Source: a virus. Taken from it: 64,000 bases of DNA. The stretch covers positions 96,001-160,000 of the IMG/VR virus record IMGVR_UViG_3300023223_000669. One strand, given 5' to 3'. The notes under the pieces were generated by a model, which was given only the letters and a program-made list of their open reading frames with translations, did no database searches and was not told where the DNA came from. How positions within the stretch are numbered: position 1 is the stretch's first letter; the number at the start of each line of letters is the position of its first letter. A program made the position numbers and the translations under genes. Shown here piece by piece: positions 24,716-51,336 of the stretch.

Positions 24716-24721
24716 TATAAT
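24713..24721 (+). promoter_or_regulatory. extended -10 promoter (TGATATAAT) upstream of the sigma gene
   Basis: perfect TGnTATAAT; no good -35. Confidence 0.5.
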
Positions 24722-24723
24722 GT

Positions 24724-25446
24724 ATGATTACGCAGAAGATGATGAAGCACAATATCGTATGGCTAGAAGAGTCCAGCATAATGGTTGATGAGATCTCTGA
24801 GGAAGAGGTTGAGTCTCTCCTGGATGAATATCGTCCTATCGTTACTCGCATTGCTCGATCGGCTTTCTATTCCTCAGCAGCTATTGATGTCAACGACCTT
24901 ATCCGCGTTGGTGAGTTTGCCGTCCTACAAGCTGTCAAAGCCTATGACCCCACCTGTGGTACAACCATTCGCTCTTTTGTGTCTAGAGTTGTACGAAACG
25001 AAATTTTCCATGAAGCCGCCCGCTTCTTGGGAGTGTTTACAGTAGACCACCGAGTCACCAGCCTAGCTGCCAAGGTTAATAAATTACACGCTAAGGGGCA
25101 GAGTGACACGGAGATTGCCGAGGTGCTCAATGCATCCGGCAGTCGCAATTTTGATGCGGACCATGTTCGCGATTTACGTATTGCCTATAGTCGCCGTCAG
25201 CATTCAGCTTTGACAGACGACGATGCTCTCGAAGAGTATTCTGCCGAGGAAAACACAATCCAAGAACTATTGCGGGGAGTTGTGCAAAACCCAATAGAGC
25301 AGACTATTTTAGACGAAAGGATCCTAGGCGATAAATCAGTAAAGGACGTGGCTTGTATCTTATGCCTATCGCAACGTCAAGTATACGATCTGGAAAACCA
25401 ACTCAAAGATCGTATCCGGAAAGCCATTGAAGATGTAACGGAATGA
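24724..25446 (+). CDS. sigma70-family RNA polymerase sigma factor (true start may be 24739 or 24781)
   Basis: region 2 DVNDLIRVGEFAVLQAVKAYDP-x-SFVSRVVRNEI; region 4 HTH SVKDVACILCLSQRQVYDLE. Confidence 0.85.
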   Translation: MITQKMMKHNIVWLEESSIMVDEISEEEVESLLDEYRPIVTRIARSAFYSSAAIDVNDLIRVGEFAVLQAVKAYDPTCGTTIRSFVSRVVRNEIFHEAARFLGVFTVDHRVTSLAAKVNKLHAKGQSDTEIAEVLNASGSRNFDADHVRDLRIAYSRRQHSALTDDDALEEYSAEENTIQELLRGVVQNPIEQTILDERILGDKSVKDVACILCLSQRQVYDLENQLKDRIRKAIEDVTE

Positions 25447-27248
25447 ATGAGAAAAAGCGTGTATTGTTTATAGGTGAAGCCAGCAATTTGAGTACTGGCT
25501 TCTCGACCATTTATCGAGAACTATTACCTCGACTGGCAGCTACGGGTAAGTATGAAATCGCAGAGTTCGGATCATATGTTCGCCAAGATGATCCCAAGGT
25601 CCAAGAGTTTATTCAAGGACGCTGGAAGTTCTACGGTGTCATGCCCCTCACCCAGCAAGAAGGACAGGTTTTCAATCAGCCCAGCCCACACCCTAGGGCA
25701 AAGGGACTGAATACCAACCAGTTTGGCGAGTACAAGTTCAATCATGTTGTTGCCGATTTCAAGCCTGATATTGTCATCGATATTCGTGATTGGTGGATGT
25801 TAGAGTATCAAGAGCGAAGCGTGTTTCGTCCATTCTATAAATGGATTGTTATGCCTACTGTTGATGCTGAACCCCAGGCAGAGGAATGGATTCAAACCTA
25901 CGAAAATGCAGAAATGGTTTTGGCCTATTCTGACTATGGTGTTCATGCTCTGCGTCGTCAGAGTCAGTTGACTACCGGGGGACGCCGTAAGATGCGTGTG
26001 TTCCCGAAGGCCATGCGTCCTGGAGTTGATTTGGCTACATTTAAACCAATGGACAAGGCAGAGATTCGTGAACATTGGAATCTCTCTAAAGACAATCCGG
26101 TTATTGGCACGGTTATGCGTAATCAAAGCCGTAAGTTGTACCCTGATTTGATCGATGGTTTCGCTCGCATGCGAGAGAAGTATAAGGGCAATGAAGCGGT
26201 AGACAAGGCTGTTCTTTTGATTCATTCTTCGTGGCCAGATAATCAACATTCATTTGATTATCCGAGACACATTATGCGTCTTGAGTCTTATCCATGGATG
26301 CAGCATGCACAAAAAGGTATTCGAGGCAGCATTCTCCAGACGATCCACTGTCATACATGCAATGAGCCCTCTGTTGCGTTTGCCATGAGCCTGTGGGGTA
26401 AGCCTATCGAAGAAGGTAGAGTCAAGTTGCCATGTCCTCACTGTGGTAAGGTTGATGCTTCACCGCCGAATACTGCCATGGGTTTTTCACGCGAAGATCT
26501 TGCTAAACTGTATAACCTGATGGATCTCTATGTGCAATGTTCCATCTGTGAGGGTGACGGCATGCCCATTCAAGAGGCGAAAGCCTGTGGAGTGCCGACG
26601 CTAGCTACAGACTACACGGCCATGCGTGAGAAAGGAAGATTCCCCGACTACTCGCACTTTGAGGAGCTTGGTTATACTTCTCAGACGTACACTTGTCATA
26701 AGGGCGGCGAAGTGATTGATGTTGGTCGTTATTACTATGAGCCAGAGACCAGTTGTATGCGTGCTCACCCTGATATTGAAGACTTAGCCGACAAGATGTT
26801 TGCCATGATTAGCAATCAGGAGAAGCTGGATAGTCTTGGTGTAGAGGCCCGTACATGTGCCGAAGACAACTATGATTGGAATGTGCTTTGGAAACAATGG
26901 GAGTATGTTCTAGATAACGTTAAAATAAAGGATCGTTTGCAGACGTGGGATAGTCCCATCGCTGAGCACGAAGATATTGCTGCTGTGCCCGTGCCTGCTG
27001 CACTCAGCGATGAGCAATATGTTGAATGGCTCTATCTCAATGTTCTCAAATATCCCTCAGTTGATCCCGAGGGGGCAAAGGTTTGGGTACAGCATCTTGG
27101 ACTTGGTGTAACTCGCGAACAGATCATGCAACAGTTTGTAGCAATTGGTAATCAACAGTCCGATGGTAGCAAGATGCGTGATCAGATTCGTCAACAGGTG
27201 GCTGGTCTTACTATAAATCTACCGAAGCCCAAGCAGGAGTTCGTATAA
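25443..27248 (+). CDS. GT-B (GT4-like) glycosyltransferase with CxxC inserts and DUF4214-like C-terminus
   Basis: RPGVDLATFKP, IGTVMRNQ-RK, LYNLMDLYVQCSICEGDGMPIQEAKACGVP. Confidence 0.85.
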   Translation: MNEKKRVLFIGEASNLSTGFSTIYRELLPRLAATGKYEIAEFGSYVRQDDPKVQEFIQGRWKFYGVMPLTQQEGQVFNQPSPHPRAKGLNTNQFGEYKFNHVVADFKPDIVIDIRDWWMLEYQERSVFRPFYKWIVMPTVDAEPQAEEWIQTYENAEMVLAYSDYGVHALRRQSQLTTGGRRKMRVFPKAMRPGVDLATFKPMDKAEIREHWNLSKDNPVIGTVMRNQSRKLYPDLIDGFARMREKYKGNEAVDKAVLLIHSSWPDNQHSFDYPRHIMRLESYPWMQHAQKGIRGSILQTIHCHTCNEPSVAFAMSLWGKPIEEGRVKLPCPHCGKVDASPPNTAMGFSREDLAKLYNLMDLYVQCSICEGDGMPIQEAKACGVPTLATDYTAMREKGRFPDYSHFEELGYTSQTYTCHKGGEVIDVGRYYYEPETSCMRAHPDIEDLADKMFAMISNQEKLDSLGVEARTCAEDNYDWNVLWKQWEYVLDNVKIKDRLQTWDSPIAEHEDIAAVPVPAALSDEQYVEWLYLNVLKYPSVDPEGAKVWVQHLGLGVTREQIMQQFVAIGNQQSDGSKMRDQIRQQVAGLTINLPKPKQEFV

Positions 27249-28498
27249 TGAAATTACTTTTTGTTGGTCCTCTTTTGGATTTTTCCGGCTTTGCTACGGC
27301 TTCACGTCGCTTCTTACAAGCACTCAACGAGAGCGACCTTGACTTGACGGCCCGTCCTCTACGGTATGATAAGTTGGATGATGGACAAGAGTTCACTCCG
27401 CCGGAATGGCTCGCCTCCCTTTTGAAGAATGATCTTCAAGGGGTTGATATGGCCCTTCAAATGACGACATCGAATACCGAGGCCGTCCCCGTGCCTGGTA
27501 TTTTGAATGGTCTGTATACCTTCTTTGAGACTGATCGTCTGCAACCTTTGTGGGCACAGAAGGCGAACGAGTTTGACTTCATCATTGTACCCTCGCGAAG
27601 CAATGGTGAGACGTTGCTCCGTTCGGGAGTGAATAAGCCTATTTTGTGTGCTGGCCCCCCTTGTGACATAGATGATTTCCAACGTGAACGTCAGCCGTTC
27701 GTCATTGAGCAGGCTGGTGACAGAACGATCTTCTATAATATTTGTCAGTTGAGTGCCAAGAAAGGGATTGATGTTTTGCTACGTGCTTACTATGCCGCAT
27801 TTGTCGGGGCACCCGATGAAGTGTTGCTTGTTCTCAAGACATATGTCAATATGGAGAACCGTCAGCAAGATGAAGAGATTGTTAAGCAGTATATCCAGAA
27901 TATCAAGCAACGTTGTCGTATTCCGGTTCCCCAACATCCTCCCGTGTTGCCATTAGTATATACCATGACGGACGATGAGATCCACGGTTTACATGTTGCT
28001 GGCCATGCGTACGTTTGCTCTAGTCGAGCAGAAGGATGGGGACTTCCCGTGTTTGATGCTTTGGCTCACGGTAAGACGGTCATCACCCACAATGCTGGTG
28101 GCTTGGCAGACTTCGTAACCCCAGAGAATTCGCTGCTCTATCAAGGCATGCCAACGTTCTTCTTTGATATGCCGCATCCTGATCCTGGTCTTTTTACTGG
28201 TGTTGAACAGTGCTTCGAGCCTTCGCCAGCACACTTAGCCCTCAATATGCGTAGGTTCCATCTACTCAGACGTGGTGCTGATGCTGGCGAGCTTGACGAA
28301 ACAATGCAGGCCGAATGGGCATCTGTACTGACGCGTCGTGAAAATGCTAAGCTTGTTGGCCAGAAGTTTGATTACCGTGCTATTGGTAAGCGTATTGTTG
28401 GTCAGCTAGAATCACTATTCGCCTCATGGAAAGAAACTGGTACAGCTATCTACACTCCGACAAATGATGAGAAACCTTCTCTGGAGGATTCGCTATGA
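27248..28498 (+). CDS. GT4-like glycosyltransferase
   Basis: KKGIDVLLRAY, YVCSSRAEGWGLPVFDALAHGK. Confidence 0.85.
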   Translation: MKLLFVGPLLDFSGFATASRRFLQALNESDLDLTARPLRYDKLDDGQEFTPPEWLASLLKNDLQGVDMALQMTTSNTEAVPVPGILNGLYTFFETDRLQPLWAQKANEFDFIIVPSRSNGETLLRSGVNKPILCAGPPCDIDDFQRERQPFVIEQAGDRTIFYNICQLSAKKGIDVLLRAYYAAFVGAPDEVLLVLKTYVNMENRQQDEEIVKQYIQNIKQRCRIPVPQHPPVLPLVYTMTDDEIHGLHVAGHAYVCSSRAEGWGLPVFDALAHGKTVITHNAGGLADFVTPENSLLYQGMPTFFFDMPHPDPGLFTGVEQCFEPSPAHLALNMRRFHLLRRGADAGELDETMQAEWASVLTRRENAKLVGQKFDYRAIGKRIVGQLESLFASWKETGTAIYTPTNDEKPSLEDSL

Positions 28499-29634
28499 AC
28501 CAACAGCAAATCTATTACGAGCCGCAGATGCAATCGATTGCGGAGCGTGTCAATCAGCCGCCGCGTATTGTACAATGTATCCAAATGCACAACGAGGAGC
28601 AATTTGCCCCGTTGGTGCTGGCATCTATCTATGATGAGGTAGATCGTATTATTGTGATCGAGGGTGCCGTTGAGAACCGTCCGAACGCAACACAAGATGG
28701 ACACTCCACCGACAATACGTTGTCGGTGATTAAGAAATTCAAAGAAGAAAATGATCCAGACAATAAGATCCTGCTGGTCTCTATCCCCAAGTTTTGGAAA
28801 AACCTGGAGGAAATGAAACAGGTATTCCTTGATATGAGTATTCCGGGCGACTGGATCTTGATCAATGATGCAGACGAATTTTATAAGCCGTCTGATATCA
28901 GACGACTTAGGAAAGCTATTGAGCTTGAGCCGCACGCCTGCGAGTTTGTTCCGAACTTCCTGCACTTCTATCGTGACTGCTGGCATGTGGCCGTTCCTGG
29001 TCCCGAGTGGCAACCACAACATCAGCGGGTATTCAAATATGTACGCGGCATGATATACAATAGTCATCCGGTCGTTACTGACCCTGCGGGACATTGCACA
29101 TATTTCTCACCACATTATCAACAGCGTAGGGTAATGCTTAATGATTTCTTTATTTACCACTATGGTTATGCCCGTTCCAATATGGACGAAATCATGAGGG
29201 CGAAACAAGAATATTACAAGGGTGAGCTTGCGAAGCACGATGGGGCCGACAAGAAGTTTGATCAGAAAGTCAAGGACTGGTTTGATGGTACGGAACCACT
29301 ACTGAGGTTCGATGGAGAACATCCTCAAATCATTCAGGATCATTATCATGTGGCAAATAAGGTTGTGCCCAGAAATGTTCCTACCCTATGGCGGGACGAT
29401 CCTTTTTATAGTAAGGTGCTCAGGAATGAGCCCTATGGAAATATTTATTTGTGTATGACGCAGCAAGCAACGCCGCACATGCAACTGTATCACAACGGTA
29501 TGACTATTGAAAATGGTCTTGAAACAGAAGGCGATGTTCCTGTGGTACAGATGTCGATGGAAGAATATAAACAGGCCCTACAGTCTGGTGGCCTAGAAGG
29601 TTTTGGCTGTGGTAACCCCGCAGTCTCATGTTAG
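28495..29634 (+). CDS. GT-A (GT2-like) glycosyltransferase
   Basis: MHNEEQF, IIVIEG, STDNT, WILINDADEF (DxD), IYHYGY. Confidence 0.75.
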   Translation: MNQQQIYYEPQMQSIAERVNQPPRIVQCIQMHNEEQFAPLVLASIYDEVDRIIVIEGAVENRPNATQDGHSTDNTLSVIKKFKEENDPDNKILLVSIPKFWKNLEEMKQVFLDMSIPGDWILINDADEFYKPSDIRRLRKAIELEPHACEFVPNFLHFYRDCWHVAVPGPEWQPQHQRVFKYVRGMIYNSHPVVTDPAGHCTYFSPHYQQRRVMLNDFFIYHYGYARSNMDEIMRAKQEYYKGELAKHDGADKKFDQKVKDWFDGTEPLLRFDGEHPQIIQDHYHVANKVVPRNVPTLWRDDPFYSKVLRNEPYGNIYLCMTQQATPHMQLYHNGMTIENGLETEGDVPVVQMSMEEYKQALQSGGLEGFGCGNPAVSC

Positions 29635-29644
29635 GAGAAAAATT

Positions 29645-30019
29645 ATGAGTTTTGCAACAGATTATATAACAGCGTATAGATTACTACGTCATGGCGACGT
29701 TCCCGACGATATTGGCAGAGCCTTAGGCTATGAAGACAAAGATATTCTGCTTCGTCTACGTGCCCGCTTTGGTCGTGTGAGTCTTCGTGAGGCGGTTGAT
29801 AAAAGTCGAGTTCGAATTTTTGGTCGCATTAAAGCTGCTATTTATGCTGTTAAGATGGTCAAAGAAATGAGACGACAAAAAGTTCTGATTACCAATATGC
29901 TTGGTCTTGAACAAGAGCCTGATGGCATTAGAGAGATTCATAAAAAATCCATCAATTTATTCCCTATTACGGTGCATCGCACAGTAGTTCAAATGCGTGA
30001 ACCCAAGGAAGATGCCTAG
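29645..30019 (+). CDS. hypothetical protein
   Basis: AGGAG upstream of ATG 29645. Confidence 0.55.
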   Translation: MSFATDYITAYRLLRHGDVPDDIGRALGYEDKDILLRLRARFGRVSLREAVDKSRVRIFGRIKAAIYAVKMVKEMRRQKVLITNMLGLEQEPDGIREIHKKSINLFPITVHRTVVQMREPKEDA

Positions 30020-30872
30020 ACTCAGTTACTTGGTTTCAACTTATGATTCTGGCCAATTTCTAGACGGTCACATTGCCGATCTCATTGACCATCAAACAGA
30101 TGGAGACTTTGAGATCGTAATAGTTAACCCGGCTTCGCCGGGCATTGATGGCCTCATTGCTGAGAAGTGGGCTCACGCGGATCCCCGCGTGAAGTATATC
30201 TACCATCACGAGAGAGAACCGTATGGAACCTCCTGGCTGCGAGCATGGCGAGCAGCCAGGGCTCCACTCGTGATGAACTCTAACACCGACGATTTCCATG
30301 AGCCCCGTACGACTGAATTAGTCCATAAGCACATGCGTCTGGCAACCAGCCCGATGCATACAGGTTCTAAGATCGGCTTTGGCTATGGTGGTATCACTGT
30401 GACAGACGCGAAGGTTCGTGCGACAGGAAGAGGCTTAAAACCTCCATTCAATTTTGAGGTCATGTCGTATGAGTGTCACGCTGGCCCGCAGGTTATCTGG
30501 CGAAACGACAAGCAATTCATTGATGATCTTGACTGGAATCTGATGCAAGAGCGTAGTGAGAGCTACAAGTCGGCATTTGACTACTGGCTTTGGCTGTACT
30601 TCATGAGTAAGGGGTATCGTGGCTATGTGATTCCTGAGTATCTTACGATTTACCGGCAACGTCCCGATTCTATTGAGAATCGAAATAAATGGGCTAATAA
30701 TTGGGAAACTTATGCTGCCATCAGTGAGTTTTTCGGTCATAATTTCGATGGCAAATTGACACATGCACAGGAGTTTAGGGATTTCGACGCTCTACCTCCG
30801 CGAGACGCATGGGTTGCTACAATGCAAGCAGGCGAACAATGGGAAAAATCAGAGATAGATGGTATAGGTTAG
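30012..30872 (+). CDS. GT2 glycosyltransferase
   Basis: SYLVSTYDS-x-FEIVIVNPASP; MNSNTDD; DYWLWL. Confidence 0.8.
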   Translation: MPRLSYLVSTYDSGQFLDGHIADLIDHQTDGDFEIVIVNPASPGIDGLIAEKWAHADPRVKYIYHHEREPYGTSWLRAWRAARAPLVMNSNTDDFHEPRTTELVHKHMRLATSPMHTGSKIGFGYGGITVTDAKVRATGRGLKPPFNFEVMSYECHAGPQVIWRNDKQFIDDLDWNLMQERSESYKSAFDYWLWLYFMSKGYRGYVIPEYLTIYRQRPDSIENRNKWANNWETYAAISEFFGHNFDGKLTHAQEFRDFDALPPRDAWVATMQAGEQWEKSEIDGIG

Positions 30873-31300
30873 TTGCTGGCGGTCTTTTGCAGGCCAAGAA
30901 GCGTTTAGCTACTAAATTAGCTAGACAGATTGAGATTACAGCAGAACATGCAGCCCAATGGAGGATTGTCCAGAGACAATTCATCGCCCTGAAAGATGAT
31001 ATGAAAAAGATCCTTGCAGACAGAGACGATCAAATCGTTATTCTGAAAGAACATGTTAAGGCTGCCAAAGAGGGTCGAACAGATGACGTTGAGACAGCCA
31101 AGGACATTATCCGTGAACGCATGGGTATGGATCCAGACGCTCCTGGTAAGATGGACATATTACGAAAGCAGCTTCGCCAAGAGTGTGCCTATGTGATGTA
31201 TCTAGAAGACAATCTTGAGGATGGATTGACAGAGTTTAATGACATACCGAAAGAAGAACGTAAAGTCTATTTTGAGCGTGTAGATGAGCGGGCACGATGA
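30839..31300 (+). CDS. hypothetical coiled-coil protein
   Basis: charged helical ORF; ATGA overlap with the next gene. Confidence 0.55.
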   Translation: MGKIRDRWYRLVAGGLLQAKKRLATKLARQIEITAEHAAQWRIVQRQFIALKDDMKKILADRDDQIVILKEHVKAAKEGRTDDVETAKDIIRERMGMDPDAPGKMDILRKQLRQECAYVMYLEDNLEDGLTEFNDIPKEERKVYFERVDERAR

Positions 31301-31665
31301 GCAAACAACGTATTGTGTCGCAGTCTTGGGGACGTGAGCGAGTCTTAGAAGAGAATGACAAGTATGTCCTTAAGATATTGGAAGTCGATCCTGGTCATCG
31401 ACTGAGCCTGCAATTCCATGACCGTCAAAGACTTACATTGTATTGTCTTTACGGTCATGGGACGCTCTTTTTGACCAACGACCAACACGATAGCGAAAGA
31501 TCCCTGCTGCCGGGGCGTTACGAAACAATCGAACCCGGCACCATCCACAGTCTTGAATCATCAGGAACGGCCCCCTGTATTGTGATGCAGATTTCGTGTG
31601 CAACAGCAAACGACACCACCATCTTAGACGTTGGCAGGTTCCTCGACCCCTTTAGCAATGATTAA
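31297..31665 (+). CDS. cupin, type II phosphomannose-isomerase C-domain-like (degenerate)
   Basis: VLKILEVDPGHRLSLQFH...IEPGTIHSL. Confidence 0.65.
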   Translation: MSKQRIVSQSWGRERVLEENDKYVLKILEVDPGHRLSLQFHDRQRLTLYCLYGHGTLFLTNDQHDSERSLLPGRYETIEPGTIHSLESSGTAPCIVMQISCATANDTTILDVGRFLDPFSND

Positions 31666-34483: not shown

Positions 34484-34486
34484 TTC

Positions 34487-35215
34487 ATGACAAAAATCAT
34501 ATCTTTTTCTTTATGGGGAAACGAGCCCAAGTATTGTATTGGAGCTATCCGTAACGCGGAGCTTGCAGAGGAAATCTATCCTGGATGGGAAGTACACATA
34601 CAAATGGATTATCAAGTACCCATGTATGTCTGGCGAGCACTTGGAGAGATGGGCGACCACGTTCATGCTATTCGTCGTTTAGATCCAGAAACCCATGGTA
34701 TGGCCAAGGGCGACTGGCGTGGCATGTTTTGGCGTTTTGAGTATGCGTGTTGTCAGGGCTTGGACAATGAAGTGGAAGCATTCATTTCACGCGACTGCGA
34801 CAGCAGACTATTTCGCCGCGAAGCGGCAGCGGTTGAAGAGTGGCTAGAGAGTGGTAAAGGATTTCATATCATGAGGGATCATCCTTGGCATGGTTCACAA
34901 ATGTTGGGCGGTATGTGGGGTTGTCGCAATTATGCTCTACCTGAGTTTCTAGACCTCATGTATAATACGGATGGTACTAACAATCTACTCGGCCATCACG
35001 ATAATCGTTGGCAATGTGATCAAGACTTTCTGAACACCATGATTTATCCTCGTATCGTAAACGACGCGATGATTCATGCAAGCTTTTTGAAGATGGAACC
35101 ACACGCAAAAGACTTTCCTGTGCCCCGGCGGGGCACAGAATTTGTTGGACAGATTTTTGATGAGAACGACGCAGTTATACCTGAACACGTAGCCGCATTG
35201 GCACAAGCACTATGA
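34487..35215 (+). CDS. putative GT-A glycosyltransferase-like protein
   Basis: IISFSLWG..Y-x-GAIRN; ISRDCDSR (DxD); HIMRDHP; LGGMWG; DQDFL. Confidence 0.6.
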   Translation: MTKIISFSLWGNEPKYCIGAIRNAELAEEIYPGWEVHIQMDYQVPMYVWRALGEMGDHVHAIRRLDPETHGMAKGDWRGMFWRFEYACCQGLDNEVEAFISRDCDSRLFRREAAAVEEWLESGKGFHIMRDHPWHGSQMLGGMWGCRNYALPEFLDLMYNTDGTNNLLGHHDNRWQCDQDFLNTMIYPRIVNDAMIHASFLKMEPHAKDFPVPRRGTEFVGQIFDENDAVIPEHVAALAQAL

Positions 35216-35568
35216 AAACCTTAGATTTTGATGAAATCAAACAAGATGTCGTAAATTTCTTACTTGAAACATGTCTTGATACTCATGTAACAGGATGTGT
35301 GTTTGAAAATCGAGTCGTATTTAATGTCTATGTTAGAAATTCAACGCTCGATATAGACGAGGGTCGTCTGCAAGCAATCTTAGCAAAGTATAATTTGGTG
35401 GGAGATGATGACTTAGTACATACATTTCCAGTGAGTCCAGGAGGATTTTACAATCAGTATTTTAATATTGGTTGTACGGCTCAAGAGGCCATACGTGTAT
35501 CCATGACTTTAGATCCTAATTATCAAAAACCAAACGAAGATCCTATTGCTGTTGTACGTCCATTATGA
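35212..35568 (+). CDS. hypothetical protein
   Basis: 118 aa, coupled on both sides. Confidence 0.55.
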   Translation: MKTLDFDEIKQDVVNFLLETCLDTHVTGCVFENRVVFNVYVRNSTLDIDEGRLQAILAKYNLVGDDDLVHTFPVSPGGFYNQYFNIGCTAQEAIRVSMTLDPNYQKPNEDPIAVVRPL

Positions 35569-36647
35569 AAGCTCTAACGTTTGATGATATCTCTCTTGTC
35601 CCGCGATACAACAACATTGCTTCGCGGAACGACGTAGACACCAACGTACAGTTTGGGGGTCTCAAATTGAAAATTCCTGTGTTTTCAGCCAATATGGAGA
35701 CTGTAACTGGTGCTACAATGGCTGATAAAATGTCACAACTTGGTGGCCTTGGGTTTCTTCATAGATTTTGTTCTATTGAAGATAATGTTTCTATGTACCT
35801 TGATGCTACGCCCGGTAAAGGAATATCAAAACGAGACCACCTAGTACAAGGCACTGAAGCTGTAGTGTCACTCGGTATCAATGAGGGACTTGAGCGTTTC
35901 CATGCTCACTATGAGGTAGGTGCTCGCTACTTCTGTGTTGATATTGCACATGGTCACAGTCAGTTGGTTGGACGTATTATTCAACAGATCAAAGAATTCA
36001 GCGATGACACGTTTGTCATCGCTGGGAACGTCTGTCACGCTGCCGGGGCTGAATACCTTGCAGACAAGGGTGCTGATGCGGTAAAAGTTGGTGTCGGCCC
36101 CGGAAGCGTATGCACCACACGCATCAAAACCGGTTTCGGTGTGCCACAGTTTTCGGCAATCAAAGCTTGTCGAAGAATCAATGTCTTTGTCATTGCTGAT
36201 GGTGGTATACGGCATCCGGGGGATGCCGTAAAAGCATTTGTGGCGGGTGCAGATGCCATCATGTTAGGCGGCATGCTTGCCGGGTGCGACGAAACCCCTG
36301 GTGAAATTCAGCATGAAACTATTACGCTTGGTGGTACTTACCATGATCATAAGTTCAATGTCAAAAACTCGGGATACAAAGTATTCCGAGGCATGGCTTC
36401 CAAGGAAGCTCAGGATGATTTCATGGGCAAAATGAGCGGCTGGAAAACGTCCGAAGGCGTAGAGATTAAGATTGAGGCTAAAGGGCCTGTTGTGAACGTA
36501 GTGAACGATCTCATGGGCGGTATTCGTAGTGGTATGACTTATGTTGGAGCCAATAGACTGAAGGAACTACGAGAGCGAGCAGACTGGGTAGAAGTTACTG
36601 CTGCTGGCCGAACAGAAGGTAGCCCGCATGGCGAAGGGAGACTATGA
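35565..36647 (+). CDS. IMPDH/GMP reductase family enzyme without CBS domains (GMP reductase favoured)
   Basis: LTFDDISLVP, DIAHGHS, IAGNV, KVGVGPGSVCTT, IADGGI, FRGMAS, GGIRSGMTYVGA; no Arg-Tyr flap dyad. Confidence 0.9.
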   Translation: MKALTFDDISLVPRYNNIASRNDVDTNVQFGGLKLKIPVFSANMETVTGATMADKMSQLGGLGFLHRFCSIEDNVSMYLDATPGKGISKRDHLVQGTEAVVSLGINEGLERFHAHYEVGARYFCVDIAHGHSQLVGRIIQQIKEFSDDTFVIAGNVCHAAGAEYLADKGADAVKVGVGPGSVCTTRIKTGFGVPQFSAIKACRRINVFVIADGGIRHPGDAVKAFVAGADAIMLGGMLAGCDETPGEIQHETITLGGTYHDHKFNVKNSGYKVFRGMASKEAQDDFMGKMSGWKTSEGVEIKIEAKGPVVNVVNDLMGGIRSGMTYVGANRLKELRERADWVEVTAAGRTEGSPHGEGRL

Positions 36648-37075
36648 ATCAAATTCACAAACTACCGCAACGTATAATAGACAAGATTTCTATTAATGGC
36701 AAGACCGATTGTTGGGAGTGGATCGCGTGCATTGATCGTGGTGGATATGCCAGAATCCAATATCAAGGTAAATTTGCTTCTGCTCATAGAATTGTTTATC
36801 AGTTACTTTGTGGCGAAATTCATAATGAGACATTAGATCATTTATGTCGCGTGCGTCATTGTGTAAATCCAGATCATCTAGAAGCTGTTTCGAATAAGAA
36901 AAATTGTTTGAGAGGAAATGGTCCTACGGCTAAAAACGCTCGTAAAACTCATTGTAAACGCGGACATCCATTATCAGGTAGTAATTTAGCGTTATGGAAA
37001 TCTGGTGGTCGTAGATGTAAAACATGCATGAATGATCGCAAACAAGCGAGAAGGAGAGCGGGATGCGGATATTAG
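36644..37075 (+). CDS. HNH homing endonuclease (HNH_3-type)
   Basis: CWEW, AHRIVY, LDHLCRVRHCVNPDHLEAV, KTHCKRGH. Confidence 0.9.
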   Translation: MNQIHKLPQRIIDKISINGKTDCWEWIACIDRGGYARIQYQGKFASAHRIVYQLLCGEIHNETLDHLCRVRHCVNPDHLEAVSNKKNCLRGNGPTAKNARKTHCKRGHPLSGSNLALWKSGGRRCKTCMNDRKQARRRAGCGY

Positions 37076-38623: not shown

Positions 38624-38627
38624 TGCT

Positions 38628-39059
38628 ATGCGACTTGTTGATGTATATTACGATCGATTTTTAACGAAGTATTCAATTGATTCTACGACTGAATGTTGGA
38701 TTTGGGATGGTTGTAGGGACCAAGATGGATATGGTCAGTTTCATTATCAGAAGACGGTACGAGCACATAGGTTCATCTATGAATATATCTATGGTCCTAT
38801 TCCCGATGGTATGACAGTACATCATAATTGTGGTATTAGAGAGTGTGTGAATCCAGACCATTTAGAGCTTCTGTCTTGTAGAGATAATGTTTTACAAAAT
38901 GGGGGTCCTACTGCTATCAATGCCGCCAAAACACACTGTAAGCGTGGCCATAGTTTTGACGAACCCAATACTTATGTAGATAAGTATGGTCATAGAACCT
39001 GTCGTGCATGTCGTAAGCTTCGTAAACAAAAAAGTCAGGCTAGGTATCAACAGTCATGA
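38628..39059 (+). CDS. HNH homing endonuclease (paralog of 36644)
   Basis: CWIW, RAHRFIY, VHHNCGIRECVNPDHLEL, KTHCKRGH. Confidence 0.9.
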   Translation: MRLVDVYYDRFLTKYSIDSTTECWIWDGCRDQDGYGQFHYQKTVRAHRFIYEYIYGPIPDGMTVHHNCGIRECVNPDHLELLSCRDNVLQNGGPTAINAAKTHCKRGHSFDEPNTYVDKYGHRTCRACRKLRKQKSQARYQQS

Positions 39060-41492: not shown

Positions 41493-41497
41493 TTGCC

Positions 41498-42106: not shown

Positions 42107-42120
42107 TGAGGAGTTTGAAT

Positions 42121-44373: not shown

Positions 44374-44665
44374 CATCGATGAGACCATTTGTTTTTATAA
44401 AGAGGAGATCGCTCTTGATGGTAAAAAGAACTATGGTGCGGCAATACCACACCATAAGAATATTGCCAAGATCAATGCTCTATATGATGCTGGCAACATC
44501 ATAATCTACTGGACCTCTAGAGGCAGCAGAAGCGGTATCGATTGGACTGAGTTTACAGAGCGACAACTGAACGAGTGGGGAGCAAAGCACCACGAACTAC
44601 ACTGTGACAAGCCCTACTACGACGTGTTCGTAGAAGATCGCAGCGTCAGGATTGAAGAACTATGA
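44357..44665 (+). CDS. small HAD-family phosphatase (capsule-locus type)
   Basis: DIDETIC, WTSRG, KPYYDVFVED. Confidence 0.75.
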   Translation: MIIRVDIDETICFYKEEIALDGKKNYGAAIPHHKNIAKINALYDAGNIIIYWTSRGSRSGIDWTEFTERQLNEWGAKHHELHCDKPYYDVFVEDRSVRIEEL

Positions 44666-45303: not shown

Positions 45304-45727
45304 AGGCAACATCCGTGGGCCTAACCCCAAAAAAGAAAACATGCCGCTGTACGTAGACGAGGCCATAGGGCTGGGTTTTGATGTAGAAGTTGATGTCAGA
45401 GTGATAGATGGTAAGGTTTACCTTGGTCATGATGGTCCTGACTATGAAGTAGATTTAGATTGGCTTCTTGAAAGAAGGCATAATCTTTGGGTCCATTGTA
45501 AGAATTTGGAAGCAGCACACTGGCTCGCTACTGACTTAAGATGTTTTTGTAGCATAAGCGATCCTTTTTGTTTCATTACTCAAGGTTATTTATGGTTAAA
45601 TGATTTAGAAGTTGAACCAACGGATAATTGTATTGTACCATTACTGCATACTGATGACCTCAAACGCTACAGGTTTATGGGTGAACCCTGGGGCGTGTGT
45701 ACCGACTATCCAATGGAGATCAAATAA
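45284..45727 (+). CDS. short GDPD/PI-PLC-like phosphodiesterase
   Basis: IISHRGN..EN, GFDVEVD, LGHD, WVHCKN, GVCTDY. Confidence 0.75.
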   Translation: MKIISHRGNIRGPNPKKENMPLYVDEAIGLGFDVEVDVRVIDGKVYLGHDGPDYEVDLDWLLERRHNLWVHCKNLEAAHWLATDLRCFCSISDPFCFITQGYLWLNDLEVEPTDNCIVPLLHTDDLKRYRFMGEPWGVCTDYPMEIK

Positions 45728-47268
45728 TGCCGCGTGATATTCAATTAATTATACCGATGGCTGGTAGTAGTGAAATGTTTACGAACGTTGGCCCCAAATG
45801 GCTAATTGACATAGATGGCAAACCCATGATTCAACATGTAGTTGATCAATTTCCTGGAGTTACGGACATACTATTTATTTGTAACAAAGAGGAATTACAA
45901 AATCTAGATGTGGCGAACGCACTAAAGTCATTAGGAGGTAGAGTAGTTGGAGTAAATCCAAACAGCAACGGTCCAGTGGACACTATACTTCAAGCTATAG
46001 AATACATCTCAGATGAAAAAGAGATTGTAGTGAGTTATTGTGATCATGGAATGGTTTGGAATTTTCACTCCTTTCTAGAAGAGGTTAGGCGTGGAAATTT
46101 TGATGGTGCCATGACTTGTTACAATGACTTTCATCCACATACATTGGGAACGACTGGTCTATACACCTTTTGTAGACAAAAAGACAACAAGCTCTTAGAG
46201 GTACAGGACAAGAAGCCTTTTATAGAAGAGAGGAGTTCTGAGTTTGTTTCAAGCGATGTATTTTACTTTAGGAATGGTGGTATACTGAAAAAGTATTTTG
46301 AGACGGCTATCGACAAACCGGGCATGAGTTATGATGGGAATTACTTTGTTGCTCTGGTATACAACTTGCTGATAGCAGACAACTTGAATGTTCATGTCCA
46401 TAAAATTGACACAATGTTATTGTGGGCCACACCAGAGGATCTGGAGGTTTACAAACAATGGTCAAGATACTTTGCCCAGAAGAAGCAAAAGACAGATAGG
46501 GCACCAGAGCAAGACTTCACGTTGATCCTGCCTATGTCGGGCAAGGGTACGAGATTTGCTAGGGCAGGGTACAAGTTGCCGAAACCACTACTGCCTGTTG
46601 ATGGTAAGCCGATGGTTGTTCAGGTTGCGGAGTGTTTACCAAGACATACAAATGATGTTTTTATCTGTTTGGAGGAGCACTCTATTGGTCGTACGCTTCG
46701 AGATCATTTTCCTAACTCGATAGTGCGGATTATTGATTATGTTACGGAGGGCTATGCTGCTTCGTGCGAGTTGGGAATTGACCTTATTGATGAAGATAAC
46801 CCTATCATGATTTCTCCCTGTGACAATGGAGTTTCGTATGACGAGCAAGCATTTTTGGACATGGTTGCTGACGAAGATAACGACGTGATAGTTTGGTCTT
46901 TTAGAAACAGTCAGGCGAGCAAGACAAATCCAGCCATGTATACTTGGATGGATGTTGATGAGAACAATTTTTTGTGTGACATGCTTTATAAGCAAGTGCC
47001 CAAGGGAGATCCTCTAAAGACTCATGTCAGTGTTGGCATTATGTATTTCAGAAAAGCCAAGTACCTCTTGGAAGGTCTCAGAAAGAATCGTGAACAAAAC
47101 AAAAGACCAATTGGCGAGCTTTGTATAGATAGTGTTGCACATCAACTTGCAGACAACAACTACAAGGTTAAAGTATTTGAAGTAGATCATTATGCTTGTT
47201 GGGGAACGCCCGGCGACTATAAAGCCTATCAATTTTGGGAAAATCATTTCGCATGTTCGCCGTCTTAG
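45727..47268 (+). CDS. tandem two-domain nucleotidyltransferase (NTP_transferase/GlmU-like)
   Basis: IIPMAGSS..PKWLIDIDGKPMI and ILPMSGKGTRF..PKPLLPVDGKPM; both end in L/CWG/ATP-x-D. Confidence 0.85.
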   Translation: MPRDIQLIIPMAGSSEMFTNVGPKWLIDIDGKPMIQHVVDQFPGVTDILFICNKEELQNLDVANALKSLGGRVVGVNPNSNGPVDTILQAIEYISDEKEIVVSYCDHGMVWNFHSFLEEVRRGNFDGAMTCYNDFHPHTLGTTGLYTFCRQKDNKLLEVQDKKPFIEERSSEFVSSDVFYFRNGGILKKYFETAIDKPGMSYDGNYFVALVYNLLIADNLNVHVHKIDTMLLWATPEDLEVYKQWSRYFAQKKQKTDRAPEQDFTLILPMSGKGTRFARAGYKLPKPLLPVDGKPMVVQVAECLPRHTNDVFICLEEHSIGRTLRDHFPNSIVRIIDYVTEGYAASCELGIDLIDEDNPIMISPCDNGVSYDEQAFLDMVADEDNDVIVWSFRNSQASKTNPAMYTWMDVDENNFLCDMLYKQVPKGDPLKTHVSVGIMYFRKAKYLLEGLRKNREQNKRPIGELCIDSVAHQLADNNYKVKVFEVDHYACWGTPGDYKAYQFWENHFACSPS

Positions 47269-48155
47269 ATATCAATAGGTCCAAAATCTGTTATCACACT
47301 CATCCATGCGTGTGGACTAGTGAGTATTACAAGTATTGCTTACACCTACTCATTTTGTCTTTACAACTGATTGACCAACCGATCAATATCATCTTGGGGA
47401 CTATCGATTACAATTTTCGAAACACAAACAGAACTCTTCGGTTGGACATTCAGTCAGAGCATACCTTAGTGAAGCGTGGCGGAAGAGATGTTGGCGAGAT
47501 TGTGTGGGGAGACGTGGATCTTTTGGACGAGGAGGGTAAGTACCTCATCAGGATACCAAACTATGAGTATTTCTCCAAGCTCGATGCTACCATTGAATAC
47601 AGTCTTCCAAACATGGTAAACATGAGCACTAATGATAAGTACTCAGGCTACCTTGAAACCGCGACTTACGTAGCTCCAGTCATCTATTTTTCACCAGACT
47701 TTCAAAACAGACAAGGGACAGCGACGATCACCATGTTCTCAAACAATCCATGTGAGAGGAGACTTGAGTTCTCCACGAGGGCTAGAGACATTGTGAATAT
47801 TCAAGGCGTCTTTTCCAAGGAAGACTTGAGGCAGGTTTACCATACCAGCAGGGTGATGGTCAATGTCCACCAGACTGATCATCACCACACCTTTGAGGAA
47901 CTAAGGGTATTGCCCGCATTGTGCAATGGCGTGGTGATTGTGTCCGAAGACGTTCCTCTAAAAGATAAGATTCCTTACGCAGACTCTATCGTATGGTGTT
48001 CCTACGAAGATCTCGTTGAAACGGTTGAAGATGTACAACATAACTATAAACTTTATTTCGAGAAGATCTTTACGAGTAACCTAGAGGAGCACATCAGACA
48101 GCTCCATAAAGATAACATCGAAGGTTTGACTGATTTAATCCGTCAAATAGCTTGA
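47253..48155 (+). CDS. hypothetical protein, possible GT-B-like C-terminus
   Basis: SRVMVNVH..FEELRVLPALCNGVVIVSE resembles Glyco_trans_1_2 tails. Confidence 0.5.
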   Translation: MFAVLDINRSKICYHTHPCVWTSEYYKYCLHLLILSLQLIDQPINIILGTIDYNFRNTNRTLRLDIQSEHTLVKRGGRDVGEIVWGDVDLLDEEGKYLIRIPNYEYFSKLDATIEYSLPNMVNMSTNDKYSGYLETATYVAPVIYFSPDFQNRQGTATITMFSNNPCERRLEFSTRARDIVNIQGVFSKEDLRQVYHTSRVMVNVHQTDHHHTFEELRVLPALCNGVVIVSEDVPLKDKIPYADSIVWCSYEDLVETVEDVQHNYKLYFEKIFTSNLEEHIRQLHKDNIEGLTDLIRQIA

Positions 48156-48180
48156 CACACCTAGGGTAAATTGATATAAT
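48152..48180 (+). promoter_or_regulatory. consensus sigma70 promoter (probably leaderless transcript)
   Basis: TTGACA-N17-TATAAT with extended TG; ATG 5 nt downstream. Confidence 0.8.
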
Positions 48181-48185
48181 AAGAT

Positions 48186-48728
48186 ATGGGTCGTACACTT
48201 GATTTAGAAGGTCAGAGATTTGGTATGTTGGTGACTACCAATACATTAAAACTTGTTAAATATCCTTCGAGAAGCAGTACTGTGCGTTTATGTCATTGTG
48301 ATTGTGGCCAGTCAGTATGGTTACCAACTAATTATTTGACTTGTGGCAGAGTCAAGGCGTGTGGCTGTAGACGGCAAACGGCACCTGGCCGTGCGGCTAG
48401 AAATCAGATATTGGATGGATATAAACGTGGAGCAATAGAGCGTGGTCTAGAATGGAATTTAACGGAAGAAGAGTTCGATCATATTACTGCTATGAATTGT
48501 TTTTATTGTGGTCAGTTACCTAGTAGAGAAAAAATAACAAGAGGTAATAATGGTAGTTTTGTTTATAACGGAATTGATCGCAAAGATAATAGTAGAGGGT
48601 ATTTGACTGACAACATAGTACCCTGCTGCTCTATTTGCAACAGAGCCAAGCGTGCAATGTCGTTTAATGATTTTATTCAATGGTTAGAATGTTTGGTTGA
48701 GTATAGGGGTGTACAATGCGGGTCTTGA
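48186..48728 (+). CDS. HNH-like homing endonuclease
   Basis: GQRFGML..LCHCDCG; CFYCG..GIDRKDNSRGY..NIVPCCSICNRAK. Confidence 0.85.
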   Translation: MGRTLDLEGQRFGMLVTTNTLKLVKYPSRSSTVRLCHCDCGQSVWLPTNYLTCGRVKACGCRRQTAPGRAARNQILDGYKRGAIERGLEWNLTEEEFDHITAMNCFYCGQLPSREKITRGNNGSFVYNGIDRKDNSRGYLTDNIVPCCSICNRAKRAMSFNDFIQWLECLVEYRGVQCGS

Positions 48729-49720
48729 TTACCGGAAGCTCGGGCTTCGTCGGCAAGCATGTCGTCAAGGCATTAGAAAATGATCACGATATTCTGGCGT
48801 TGTCACGCAAAGGACTCGATCTTTTGAGTCCTCCCACCGGAGAGACGACAAGGGGTTTAGTGGGGGCCAATTCTGCCGAAGCATTGTCGCTGTGGTTTAA
48901 GAACTATGAACACTACAACGGTCGCATCGACGCTATCGTGCATCTTGCGGCAACATGTGGCGGCATCGGCATCAATGCGGACAACCCAGGTAGATTCATC
49001 TACGAGAATCTCCAGATGGGCATCAATGTACTGGAGGCGGCCCGACTCGCGGGAGTCAAGAAGATCGTTAACCTCGGCACGGTTTGTGCCTATCCTAAGT
49101 ATGCTACTATTCCTTTTAAAGAAAGCGAGATTTGGGATGGATATCCAGAAGAGACCAACGCCCCCTACGGCATTGCCAAGAAGACCATCATGGAAATGGG
49201 CATTGCCTACTCACGTCAGTATGGGATGGACATTACCAATCTTGTGCCGGTGAACATGGCAGGAGAGCACGATAACTTTGATGAGTATTCGTCACATGTG
49301 ATTCCTGCACTGATTCAGAAATTTGAGCATCCAGTAGAATATGAGAGCGGTCTTGAAATTGTTGATGAAGATCATTCAAGAACATTAGTACAGCTATGGG
49401 GTACGGGGTCAGCTTCACGAGAATTCTTGTACGCGGGTGATTGTGCTAGGGCCATTGCCGTTGCCTTAGAAAAGCATACTGGTCCTGACCCTATCAATTT
49501 GGGCACCGGTAAAGAAATTACTATTCGTCAGCTTGCTGAGTTAGTCAAGAAGGTTGGTGGCTATGATTCTTATATTGTGTGGGATAAAAGCAAGCCGGAT
49601 GGTCAGCCTAGACGATGTTTAGATGTCACTAGAGCAAAGCACGTTTTGCGATGGGAAGCTACAACAACGCTGGAAGAAATTATCCGTCGTACTATTTCTT
49701 GGTATAGAGAAAATGGGTAG
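48716..49720 (+). CDS. fcl: GDP-L-fucose synthase
   Basis: ITGSSGFVG, HLAATCGGI, N..MGINVLEAA, CAYPK, YGIAK, LWGTGSASREFLY, INLGTG, KPDGQPRR. Confidence 0.93.
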   Translation: MRVLITGSSGFVGKHVVKALENDHDILALSRKGLDLLSPPTGETTRGLVGANSAEALSLWFKNYEHYNGRIDAIVHLAATCGGIGINADNPGRFIYENLQMGINVLEAARLAGVKKIVNLGTVCAYPKYATIPFKESEIWDGYPEETNAPYGIAKKTIMEMGIAYSRQYGMDITNLVPVNMAGEHDNFDEYSSHVIPALIQKFEHPVEYESGLEIVDEDHSRTLVQLWGTGSASREFLYAGDCARAIAVALEKHTGPDPINLGTGKEITIRQLAELVKKVGGYDSYIVWDKSKPDGQPRRCLDVTRAKHVLRWEATTTLEEIIRRTISWYRENG

Positions 49721-50276
49721 ACCAGCATTAAATTTGGGTGGTAGGCGTTTTGGTAAACTTGTGGCTACGAATACGCTCCGTATTGCGGCGGGGAATAATC
49801 GCCAACGTTTGTGTTATTGTGATTGTGGTAATGAAACATGGCTTGGGACTACTAATCTAACCACCGGGCACACTCAAAGTTGTGGATGTTGGTTAATGGA
49901 ATTTAAATCACTACCAAGCGGTCAAGCCGCTCGGAACGAAGTTTTTAGTGGTTACAAATCAGACGCAAAAAGACGCGGGCTGGAGTGGAATTTAACTGAT
50001 GAGCAATTTGATGCTGTAGTTTCTCAATGTTGTTTTTACTGTGGCCTAGAGCCATCTAATCGTAACAGTGTGAATCGAAATGGTGGCCGTAAGAATAGAT
50101 TAAGCTCTGGAGATTTTGTTTATAGCGGCATTGATAGAGTCAATAACAATCTTGGTTATCATGCTGATAATATTGTTGCTTGTTGTAAAATTTGCAACAA
50201 GGCCAAAAGTAACATGTCACTTTCCGATTTCTTAGAATGGATTAACAGGATCAAACAACATGACATCGTTTGTTAA
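49713..50276 (+). CDS. HNH-like homing endonuclease (paralog of 48186)
   Basis: GRRFGKL..LCYCDCG; CFYCG..GIDRVNNNLGY..NIVACCKICNKAK. Confidence 0.85.
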   Translation: MGRPALNLGGRRFGKLVATNTLRIAAGNNRQRLCYCDCGNETWLGTTNLTTGHTQSCGCWLMEFKSLPSGQAARNEVFSGYKSDAKRRGLEWNLTDEQFDAVVSQCCFYCGLEPSNRNSVNRNGGRKNRLSSGDFVYSGIDRVNNNLGYHADNIVACCKICNKAKSNMSLSDFLEWINRIKQHDIVC

Positions 50277-51336
50277 ACATCCAACGGCTCTTGTCACTGG
50301 AATTACGGGCCAGGACGGATATTACTTAGCACATTTTCTATTAGAACAGGGCTATCGAGTCGTAGGACTCGTACGTCGCACCTCCCTACCCACCGATTCG
50401 CGTCTGCGAACCTTACGCGGTAGCCCTAACTTACACCTGGTACATGGCGATGTGGACGACATCACGAGTATTCAGTCAGCTATCAGAGAATTTCAACCTC
50501 ATGAATTCTATCACCTGGCGGCACAGAGTCACGTAGCTGTTTCGTGGGAAGTCCCTATTGCTACCGCTAACACTACTGGCCTTGGCGTGTTGAATTGTCT
50601 GGAAGCTTTGAGGCAGGAAAAACCGGACTGTCGATTCTATTTTGCTGGCAGTAGCGAGCAGTTTGGTAATGCGTTGCCTGATCCGGGCGGTATTATCAAA
50701 ATACAAGATTCACAAACGGGTGAAATGACCAGGCAAAAATTGCACGAACGTTCCCCCATGCGTCCGGAATCTCCATATGCGGCTGCTAAGGTGTTTGGAT
50801 ATCACATTACTAGGGTATACCGTAGATCCTTTGATGTGTTTGCAAGCTGTGGCATATTGTTTAATCATGAATCGCCCGTTAGGGGCGAAGAGTTTGTGAC
50901 TCGCAAAATCACGCGTGGTTTAGCACGCGTGAAGTGGGACCTACAAGAATATATAGAACTCGGTAATATGAACGCTTGTCGTGATTGGGGGTTTGCGGGT
51001 GATTATGTGCGTGCCATGCATGCAATGTTACAACATGATGAGCCCGATGATTTCGTGATTGCTACTGGCCAGACAAACTCGGTCAAGCATTTTTTCAACG
51101 AGTGTTGCGAGTGGTTTGACCTTGACCCCGCTGTGGTATATAAGGTCAACGATAAATTTATGCGTCCAAAAGACATTGAAGTACTTTTGGGCGATAGTTC
51201 TAAGGCACAAAGAGTATTAGGCTGGAAGCCAGAGTGTGATTTCGAGACTTTAGTCTCGAAGATGTGTCGATATGACTACCACCTACAATCCCCCGACCCC
51301 TCCATGTCGCGAAAGGCAGATGAGTTTCTTTTCTAA
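50260..51336 (+). CDS. gmd: GDP-mannose 4,6-dehydratase
   Basis: ALVTGITGQDGYYLA, LAAQSHV, SSEQFG, SPYAAAK, LFNHESP.RGEEFVTRKI, RDWG. Confidence 0.97.
   Translation: MTSFVKHPTALVTGITGQDGYYLAHFLLEQGYRVVGLVRRTSLPTDSRLRTLRGSPNLHLVHGDVDDITSIQSAIREFQPHEFYHLAAQSHVAVSWEVPIATANTTGLGVLNCLEALRQEKPDCRFYFAGSSEQFGNALPDPGGIIKIQDSQTGEMTRQKLHERSPMRPESPYAAAKVFGYHITRVYRRSFDVFASCGILFNHESPVRGEEFVTRKITRGLARVKWDLQEYIELGNMNACRDWGFAGDYVRAMHAMLQHDEPDDFVIATGQTNSVKHFFNECCEWFDLDPAVVYKVNDKFMRPKDIEVLLGDSSKAQRVLGWKPECDFETLVSKMCRYDYHLQSPDPSMSRKADEFLF

Follow-up and report, generated by a model that had tools for sequence, protein, structure and literature searches.

The 64,000-nucleotide stretch of viral DNA analysed here (hereafter the window) corresponds to positions 96001-160000 of the single 183,100-bp sequence of IMG/VR record IMGVR_UViG_3300023223_000669, and harbors at positions 25443-51336 a block of about 26 kb with 13 glycosyltransferase (GT) or GT-like genes, out of 15 GT genes in the genome. 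With roughly even confidence, we interpret this block as a cytoplasmic, lipid-carrier-independent glycan assembly line which forms part of the core of its phage lineage and whose acceptor is most likely to be found among the virion proteins. The source is a large tailed phage with a complete genome of 183 kb, just below the 'jumbo' limit; at 183.1 kb it is strictly too small for the 'jumbo' label given in a first-pass annotation of the window, which was made from the sequence alone. The record is classed by IMG/VR as carrying direct terminal repeats, with a CheckV completeness of 100%, and encodes a large terminase (TerL), a portal protein, a weak major capsid protein (MCP)-like protein and an 1812-aa tape measure protein of a long non-contractile-type tail. 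The replication set consists of a UvsX/RecA-like recombinase, DnaB helicase, primase, exonuclease and a DnaE-type polymerase (window 21165-24473). TerL shares only ~24% amino acid identity with that of any cultured phage. The first-pass annotation had raised the possibility of a chimeric or bacterial contig, which is ruled out by the phage hallmarks (TerL, portal, tape measure), the terminal repeats, the 100% completeness and synteny in more than 40 independent contigs from different samples. GC content is furthermore even across the window, and the block avoids GCGC in the same way as the remaining genome.

The first gene of the block encodes a GT4-type enzyme of 601 aa (GT601; 25443..27248, + strand), which was found in more than 120 metagenome clusters at 53-87% amino acid identity, on contigs as long as 182 kb. 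When IMG/VR was scanned with an alignment of GT601, 42 loci were recovered, with median identities of 60-71% for the neighbouring GTs and 68% for DnaE. A homolog of the sigma factor gene that precedes GT601 in the window is located upstream in 35/42 of these loci, while a scan of IMG/VR with the single sigma factor protein gave no match, alignments being needed as queries. In a reverse test anchored on a DnaE alignment, in which IMG/VR loci with at least 3 kb of sequence downstream of dnaE were counted, GT601 is located 0.85-4.7 kb after dnaE in all 45 loci whose DnaE shares at least 34% identity, and is present in one of the 14 loci with a more distant DnaE. The identity of GT601 rises and falls with that of DnaE (r = 0.97), exceeding it by 3.5 points on average. 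The block ends with a GDP-mannose 4,6-dehydratase gene (gmd) located 21-27 kb after GT601 in each of five long relatives (G001-G005). Among cultured phages, tblastn with GT601 identified no relative above 24% identity, matches obtained with GT601 and a CgeB-like GT were limited to at most 33% identity over partial lengths, and megablast with 20 kb of the block yielded no match. Because GT601 is carried by all 45 DnaE-anchored loci and its identity tracks that of DnaE, the backbone of the block is, on this comparative evidence, a core component of the lineage that has been passed on vertically in association with the replication/sigma operon, rather than an accessory insertion. The synteny survey which the first-pass annotation had proposed thus argues against the word 'island' that it used for the block, and indicates that phage 'GT islands' are not all accessory.

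Some GT601 orthologs owe a length of 785-981 aa to inteins, which are inserted at three sites (after residues 119, 228 and 368); the third site splits the donor-binding motif between QCSI and CEGDG. Inteins are unusual in a GT, and inteins, like the four free-standing endonuclease genes of the block, are to be expected where genes are strongly conserved between relatives that co-infect. The three intein sites therefore mark GT601 as among the most conserved genes. LAGLIDADG-type domains could be observed in the GT601 inteins of relatives P0002, P0013, P0050, P0056, P0092, P0099 and P0114. The TerL of the distant relative G004 (record of L039) is furthermore located in a 1030-aa open frame (131760-134747, minus strand) with a split match, suggesting an insertion, whether an intein or another element.

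The gene content of the block combines a constant backbone with a swapped cassette. The backbone common to G001-G005 comprises GT601, the GT genes starting at 27248, 28495, 29997, 34487, 37063, 37898 and 39056, an IMPDH-family gene (35565), fcl and gmd. Two GT4 genes (31631 and 33126) and a methyltransferase gene (39982) form a tier restricted to the nearer sub-lineage (G001-G003). The cassette at 40674-48155 is found in the nearest relative, G001, only, and other genes occupy that place in G002-G005. These include genes for a HAD_2 phosphatase, two Methyltransf_24 proteins and a single-domain nucleotidyltransferase in G002, and for a GT2, a formyltransferase and a DegT aminotransferase, adjoining fcl/gmd, in the distant G005, where the formyltransferase and DegT genes suggest a sugar of the N-formyl-perosamine type. 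An N6/N4 DNA methylase gene is also located within the G005 GT block (L054:4569-5270).

None of the ORFs (open reading frames) of the block contains a predicted membrane segment, defined as a 19-residue window with a Kyte-Doolittle hydropathy of 1.6 or more, and the tape measure protein is the only product of the complete genome with at least three hydrophobic segments. Pfam searches of the block detected no initiating transferase, Wzx or ABC families. As no multi-spanning protein is encoded in the genome, the phage encodes no flippase, polymerase, ABC exporter, initiating transferase, ligase or Gtr-type protein. The first-pass annotation had recognised neither a Wzx/Wzy/ABC exporter nor an initiating transferase or membrane protein in the block, and hydropathy and Pfam results agree with it, the former for the block and the whole genome alike. 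Its proposal of a soluble, lipid-carrier-independent pathway for virion proteins thus stands as regards solubility and the genome-wide lack of an exporter and initiating transferase, while virion proteins are a candidate acceptor, weighed below.

The gene assignments draw on Pfam and NCBIfam searches, structure prediction and Atlas comparisons. The 13 GT or GT-like genes, all on the + strand as given below, exceed by one the first-pass count of about 12 (four GT4-like, four GT2-like, two CgeB-like and two to three atypical) and include a third, weak CgeB-like gene. GT601 is assigned to the GT-B enzymes of GT4 type by Pfam, and harbors an inserted CxxC...CxxC element, the cysteines of which (C303/C306/C331/C334) are invariant, and a C-terminal DUF4214 domain. 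Its AF2 model (pLDDT 82) has as its best PDB neighbour the GT of chlorovirus NY2A (3oy2; E 5e-16), followed by retaining GT4 enzymes, with a methylmannose-polysaccharide mannosyltransferase (7qsg), MshA, BshA, GlgM and sucrose-phosphate synthase among the further neighbours. Profile searches against PDB sequences gave marginal GT4 matches only for GT601, and none for the CgeB-like GT. The core further includes a GT4-type enzyme (27248..28498; PF00534, E 2.4e-9; 34-67% identity in G001-G005) and two GT2-type enzymes, at 28495..29634 (PF00535, E 6e-5, at the cut-off; 40-74% identity in G001-G005) and 29997..30872 (PF00535, E 1.5e-11; 40-69% identity in G001-G005). The two GT4-type genes of the nearer sub-lineage (31631-32761 and 33126-34292; Pfam), between which a small ORF is located, have orthologs at 46-68% identity in G001-G003 and are absent from G004 and G005. 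The core gene at 34487..35215 lacks a Pfam hit and encodes an atypical DxD enzyme of a virus-only family with a predicted GT-A fold (AF2 pLDDT 92). Its Atlas clusters are 91-100% viral, its DxD aspartates D103/D105 are invariant, and its Foldseek neighbours (E ~1e-5 to 1e-4) comprise AvpGT, Skp1 alpha-GalT, mannosylglycerate synthase, glycogenin and A64R of chlorovirus PBCV-1 (2p6w). Two CgeB-like core GTs, of the Pfam family Glyco_trans_1_2, are encoded at 37063-37974 (PF13524, E 7.5e-11; matches in G001-G005) and 39056-40030 (PF13524, E 7e-30), with a core GT2 at 37898-38623 (PF00535, E 4.7e-20; matches in G001-G005). The cassette contributes a GT2 (start at 40674; Pfam), a candidate GT-A-like enzyme whose Atlas structural look-alikes are GT2 proteins (start at 42085) and the weak CgeB-like GT (start at 47235; weak Glyco_trans_1_2 match).

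The enzymes of sugar-nucleotide synthesis and modification named in the first-pass annotation were for the most part recovered by family searches. The gmd gene at the distal end of the block (50260..51336; PF16363, E 2e-105; TIGR01472, E 2e-101) and the GDP-L-fucose synthase gene fcl (Fcl/GMER; 48716..49720; NF047922, 251 bits; PDB 1e7q, E 1.6e-54) both belong to the core, and Fcl retains the equivalents of Ser/Thr107, Cys109, Tyr136, Lys140 and His179 of Escherichia coli GMER. An accessory cupin resembling the C-terminal domain of mannose-6-phosphate isomerase (PMI; 31297..31665; PF01050, E 2e-9; C-terminal part of TIGR01479) is present in 11/42 loci. The cassette encodes a PRK-family kinase (start at 42939; best match to phosphoribulokinase, below the cut-off), a class II aldolase/epimerase (start at 43690; Pfam/NCBIfam) and a two-domain nucleotidyltransferase (start at 45697; Pfam/NCBIfam). 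The three methyltransferases predicted previously are accounted for by a Methyltransf_11 protein (39982-40677; PF08241, E 5e-12) of the nearer sub-lineage only, a Methyltransf_24-like protein of the cassette below threshold (start at 41498) and a TylF O-methyltransferase of the cassette (start at 44662; Pfam/NCBIfam). For the predicted HAD and GDPD proteins, also of the cassette, the assignments are tentative, as motifs were found and family models gave no confirmation: the small HAD-like protein (start at 44321) has a DxDxT motif and one Pfam match (E 0.018), and the GDPD-like protein (start at 45284) an N-terminal HRG motif only.

Several genes were absent from that earlier list, which likewise lacked the third CgeB-like GT. 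An IMPDH/GMP-reductase-family enzyme without CBS domains (35565..36647; PF00478, E 3e-92; best PDB match 3r2g) is present in G001-G005 and falls short of the equivalog cut-offs for IMPDH and for GMPR alike; its role may be the supply of guanine nucleotides for GDP-sugars. Two homing-endonuclease-type HNH_3 genes are located at 36644..37075 (PF13392, E 9e-8) and 38628..39059 (PF13392, E 2.6e-15). Furthermore, two paralogous Cys-rich HNH-like genes, recognised from their sequence and without a Pfam hit, are situated on both sides of fcl, at 48186..48728 (CCxxCNxAK motif) and 49713..50276 (start at 49623 or 49713).

The block forms a gap-free run of ~34 ORFs. From the sigma factor gene (24724..25446, + strand; sigma70 region 2, Pfam PF04542, E 4.9e-7) to gmd, every ORF is located on the + strand, most abut or overlap by 4 bases, and no convincing + strand terminator was found inside the block. 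The stop codon of the sigma gene overlaps the start of GT601 by 4 bases, which bears out the earlier observation that the block directly follows this gene. The sole gap between the larger genes (194 bp) is filled by a 69-codon ORF (window 34274-34483) with a Cys-rich tail (CKRCGG...CRTCGTTC). A sigma70 consensus promoter (TTGACA-17-TATAAT; 12/12 score) is located at 48152-48180, ahead of the HNH-like gene at 48186. Strong -10 boxes (window 24694-24721 and 48152-48180) end only 3-6 nt ahead of the ATG annotated for the sigma gene and for gene 48186, respectively, so that either the true starts are located further downstream or the mRNAs are leaderless; Shine-Dalgarno sequences are absent before most block genes. 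The motif TTAGTGTA occurs 12 times on the + strand of the genome, against ~3 expected, and once on the - strand, mostly directly upstream of structural genes, and possibly serves the phage sigma factor as a late-promoter element. In the window it is found at ~705 and ~12421 and is absent between 12421 and 60692. Given that the block lacks this motif, expression of its enzymes seems to coincide with that of the replication genes and the sigma factor and to precede assembly.

The link to the virion is suggested by the two remaining GT genes. About 30 kb before the window (genome 64143-66173; L004:7143-9173), genes for a CgeB-like GT, GroES (Cpn10) and a GT2 are translationally coupled, with the two GT genes flanking groES 2-3.5 kb upstream of terL. 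This CgeB-like GT, one of four members of its family in the phage, is found at the same place in G001-G003 at 57-71% identity. The position of the pair points to morphogenesis and particle assembly. Furthermore, the surface glycans of hosts change at a much higher rate than these GTs do, from which we infer that a constant, phage-encoded acceptor is the best-fitting target.

If so, the main donors would be host nucleotide sugars, with GDP-L-fucose supplied by the phage Gmd and Fcl enzymes, as identified by family and catalytic residues. The cupin, nucleotidyltransferase and IMPDH-family enzyme may feed the GDP-mannose and guanine-nucleotide pools, and the kinase, aldolase, HAD and nucleotidyltransferase of the cassette may provide another one or two activated sugars. 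From these donors, about nine soluble GTs of the conserved set would assemble a constant inner oligosaccharide, to which lineage-specific GTs and O-methyltransferases would add a variable, partly methylated outer part. Expressed alongside the replication and sigma factor genes of the phage, before the late structural genes, the enzymes would glycosylate virion proteins of the tail, fibre or head in the cytoplasm during assembly, as in the chlorovirus capsid and the CgeB/Sps-decorated spore crust. A bolder extension, which we put forward tentatively and hold to be somewhat improbable as a whole, is that this widespread lineage of large uncultured tailed phages is, as a whole, obligately glycosylated. 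Its members would assemble a chlorovirus-like glycan on their virions autonomously, within the bacterial cytoplasm and independently of lipid carriers, with an invariant inner core, for which about nine GTs would be responsible, and a methylated outer part that can be swapped. Such enzymes would be as indispensable as the replicase, hence their DnaE-level conservation and repeated invasion by inteins.

Several findings weigh against virion proteins as the acceptor. Of the 15 GT genes, 13 are located beside replication and nucleotide-metabolism genes rather than structural genes, and the block is devoid of the late-promoter-like motif TTAGTGTA. Neither Ser/Thr-rich C-termini nor Ser/Thr-rich windows were found in the MCP-like, tail-tube-like and other structural ORFs. 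The nearest GT4 structures include enzymes with small-molecule acceptors (MshA, BshA, GlgM, sucrose-phosphate synthase). Finally, membrane segments are likewise missing from the soluble GT4 and GT2 enzymes with which bacteria make O-antigen, so that solubility by itself is also compatible with action on host lipid-linked intermediates.

This last point leads to the remodelling of the host envelope, an unlikely alternative in which the GTs extend host undecaprenyl-phosphate-linked intermediates that are then exported by host flippases or ABC transporters, changing the surface of the infected cell so that, for example, superinfection is blocked or the adsorption of progeny to debris is stopped. 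The GT4, GT2, gmd, fcl, sugar methyltransferase and nucleotidyltransferase genes all belong to families of O-antigen and capsule loci, early or middle expression would leave time for export, and remodelling of this kind has also been suggested as the function of the 'LPS/cell-wall' clusters in large cyanophages (PMC12801897). A bacterial O-antigen or capsule locus, however, contains a multi-spanning initiating transferase (WecA/WbaP type) together with a flippase and polymerase or an ABC exporter, neither of which is encoded in this phage, and the serotype-converting Gtr systems of temperate phages consist of the membrane proteins GtrA and GtrB and a type-specific membrane GT, for which there are no multi-spanning candidates here. 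With none of these functions, nor a ligase, in the complete genome, such a pathway would depend wholly on the host for initiation and export. GTs that depend on the host should furthermore diverge with the host, whereas the backbone retains DnaE-like conservation across the lineage, down to 34-42% DnaE identity, and two GTs are encoded inside the head-morphogenesis operon.

The structural neighbours of GT601 are also compatible with a free or small-molecule-primed cytoplasmic glycan with some intracellular role in infection, which we consider very unlikely. The polymethylated polysaccharides of mycobacteria are made by soluble GT4 enzymes and O-methyltransferases without export, the 7qsg enzyme, MshA, BshA, GlgM and sucrose-phosphate synthase use soluble small acceptors, and the block combines three methyltransferases with zero export genes. 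A benefit of such a product to a phage is, however, not known, a swapped outer cassette is typical of surface glycans under diversifying selection rather than of an internal metabolite, and the GT pair beside groES and terL points to particle assembly.

The acceptor might lastly be the phage DNA, glycosylated after replication as a defence against restriction, as in the T-even phages and the 5mYOX- and ThyS-linked GT clusters. The block is located directly after dnaE among genes of nucleotide metabolism (the IMPDH-family gene inside it, and ribonucleotide reductase (RNR) and ThyX genes downstream), it lacks the late motif TTAGTGTA, and a DNA methylase gene is incorporated in the G005 block. 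Viral GT-A and GT-B enzymes are also known to place mono- to trisaccharides on 5-hydroxymethylcytosine (5hmC) (bioRxiv 10.1101/2023.12.21.572611). The known DNA-glycan pathways, however, start from a ThyA-type hydroxymethylase, a C5-methyltransferase with TET/JBP, or TGT (bioRxiv 10.1101/2023.12.21.572611), and use one to three GTs rather than 13-15. The complete genome contains no ThyA-family hydroxymethylase (PF00303), C5-methyltransferase (PF00145) or TGT/DpdA, and only an ordinary ThyX, leaving no known entry into the hydroxymethylated-pyrimidine route of the T-even and 5mYOX- or ThyS-linked systems; a search for Tet_JBP (PF12851) was also negative, although the control search was equally silent. 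The top structural neighbours are GT4 enzymes, and the T4 beta-GT is not among the top matches listed. Furthermore, glycosylated DNA should be protected and hence under little selection against restriction sites, whereas this phage shows extreme avoidance. GCGC is absent from the 183,100-bp genome, against ~410 occurrences expected, and is missing from the block as from the remainder. The sites CACGTG, GAGCTC, CTCGAG, GTGCAC and CAGCTG are each absent, against 18-29 expected, and 34% of the 6-mer palindromes have z < -3, compared to 0.4% of other 6-mers. The avoided palindromes cover sites made of all four bases, and such avoidance is an indirect signature of DNA that meets restriction enzymes unprotected. 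DNA is accordingly an unlikely acceptor, and its hypermodification by the block the least probable of the explanations considered.

GCGC is also absent in the stretches analysed of G001-G003 and L055, and occurs 110-145 times in those of the distant relatives G004 and G005, a pattern that points to strong, sub-lineage-specific pressure from a GCGC-cutting host restriction system. The single match to a bacterial genome was a 158-kb contig binned to a Hydrogenophaga metagenome-assembled genome (MAG), with 52% GC over the 21.8-kb stretch examined and zero GCGC there; this is probably a mis-binned phage contig, and no host inference was drawn from it. The moraphages (PMC12619734), which have a PolB polymerase and a contractile tail, represent a different lineage and were not used as relatives.

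Whatever the acceptor, the block constitutes a compact, membrane-free set of GT, methyltransferase and sugar-nucleotide genes that could be reconstituted in vitro. Should the glycan be attached to the virion, the range of viruses that glycosylate proteins in a complex manner, so far giant algal viruses and a few actinophages, would come to include a broad environmental tailed-phage lineage. The trait would be essential and passed on vertically, conserved at its core and variable at its periphery, and would have a bearing on phage stability, host recognition, evasion of grazers and immunity, and lectin- or antibody-based particle assays.

Soluble GTs of this kind have a cellular counterpart in the spore crust of Bacillus subtilis, where CgeB and SpsA-L decorate a protein particle assembled inside the cell without lipid carrier or export. 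The likeness lies in the shared CgeB Pfam family, and the spore crust, unlike this phage, is a cellular differentiation system. Mycobacteriophages Che8, Corndog and Myrna, as described in papers citing Freeman et al. 2023 (PMC10527164), encode a few soluble GTs beside their structural genes, for which modification of virion proteins has been proposed or shown, and their glycans are located on the C-terminal tails of capsid and tail-tube subunits. The present phage has two GTs in its morphogenesis operon, while the 13 GTs beside replication genes, the phage's own sugar-nucleotide synthesis and the lack of comparable Ser/Thr-rich tails distinguish it from those systems.

The number of GTs, which the first-pass annotation had likened to the scale of giant viruses, has a precedent in phages. 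Clusters for 'LPS / cell-wall synthesis and modification' are carried by the large T4-like cyanophages P-SSM2, S-SCSM1 and S-SCSM2R, the last of which is reported to encode 13 GTs and 22 such cell-wall-type genes, with no experimentally determined target (PMC12801897). As in these large lytic phages, a comparable number of GTs is here accompanied by nucleotide-sugar enzymes. The present phage, however, belongs to another lineage, with a DnaE replicase and a long non-contractile-type tail, and while the cyanophage clusters are hypervariable and accessory, its backbone is a strict core with inteins and only the distal cassette varies.

A likeness in pathway logic also exists to the autonomous glycosylation of the major capsid protein of chloroviruses PBCV-1 and NY-2A (reviewed in PMC9614988 and PMC7019647). 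Common to both are virus-encoded soluble cytoplasmic GTs, a virus-encoded Gmd and GDP-fucose synthase, sugar O-methyltransferases and, at the gene level, a conserved core with a lineage-specific outer part. Moreover, the NY2A enzyme 3oy2 heads the structural neighbours of GT601, and A64R (2p6w) is among those of the protein encoded at 34487. In contrast to the chloroviruses, the present system belongs to a tailed bacteriophage with a bacterial host and has more GT genes (15 in the genome). The chlorovirus enzymes are furthermore only 14% identical in sequence, so that what the two systems have in common is fold and logic rather than orthology. Clusters with a similar wealth of GTs are already known in large T4-like cyanophages, and soluble virus-made glycosylation is established for chloroviruses and some mycobacteriophages. 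New compared to these systems are the strict lineage-core backbone, the arrangement in two tiers, one constant and the other a swapped cassette, the presence of three intein sites within a single GT, and the argument from restriction-site avoidance against DNA as the acceptor.

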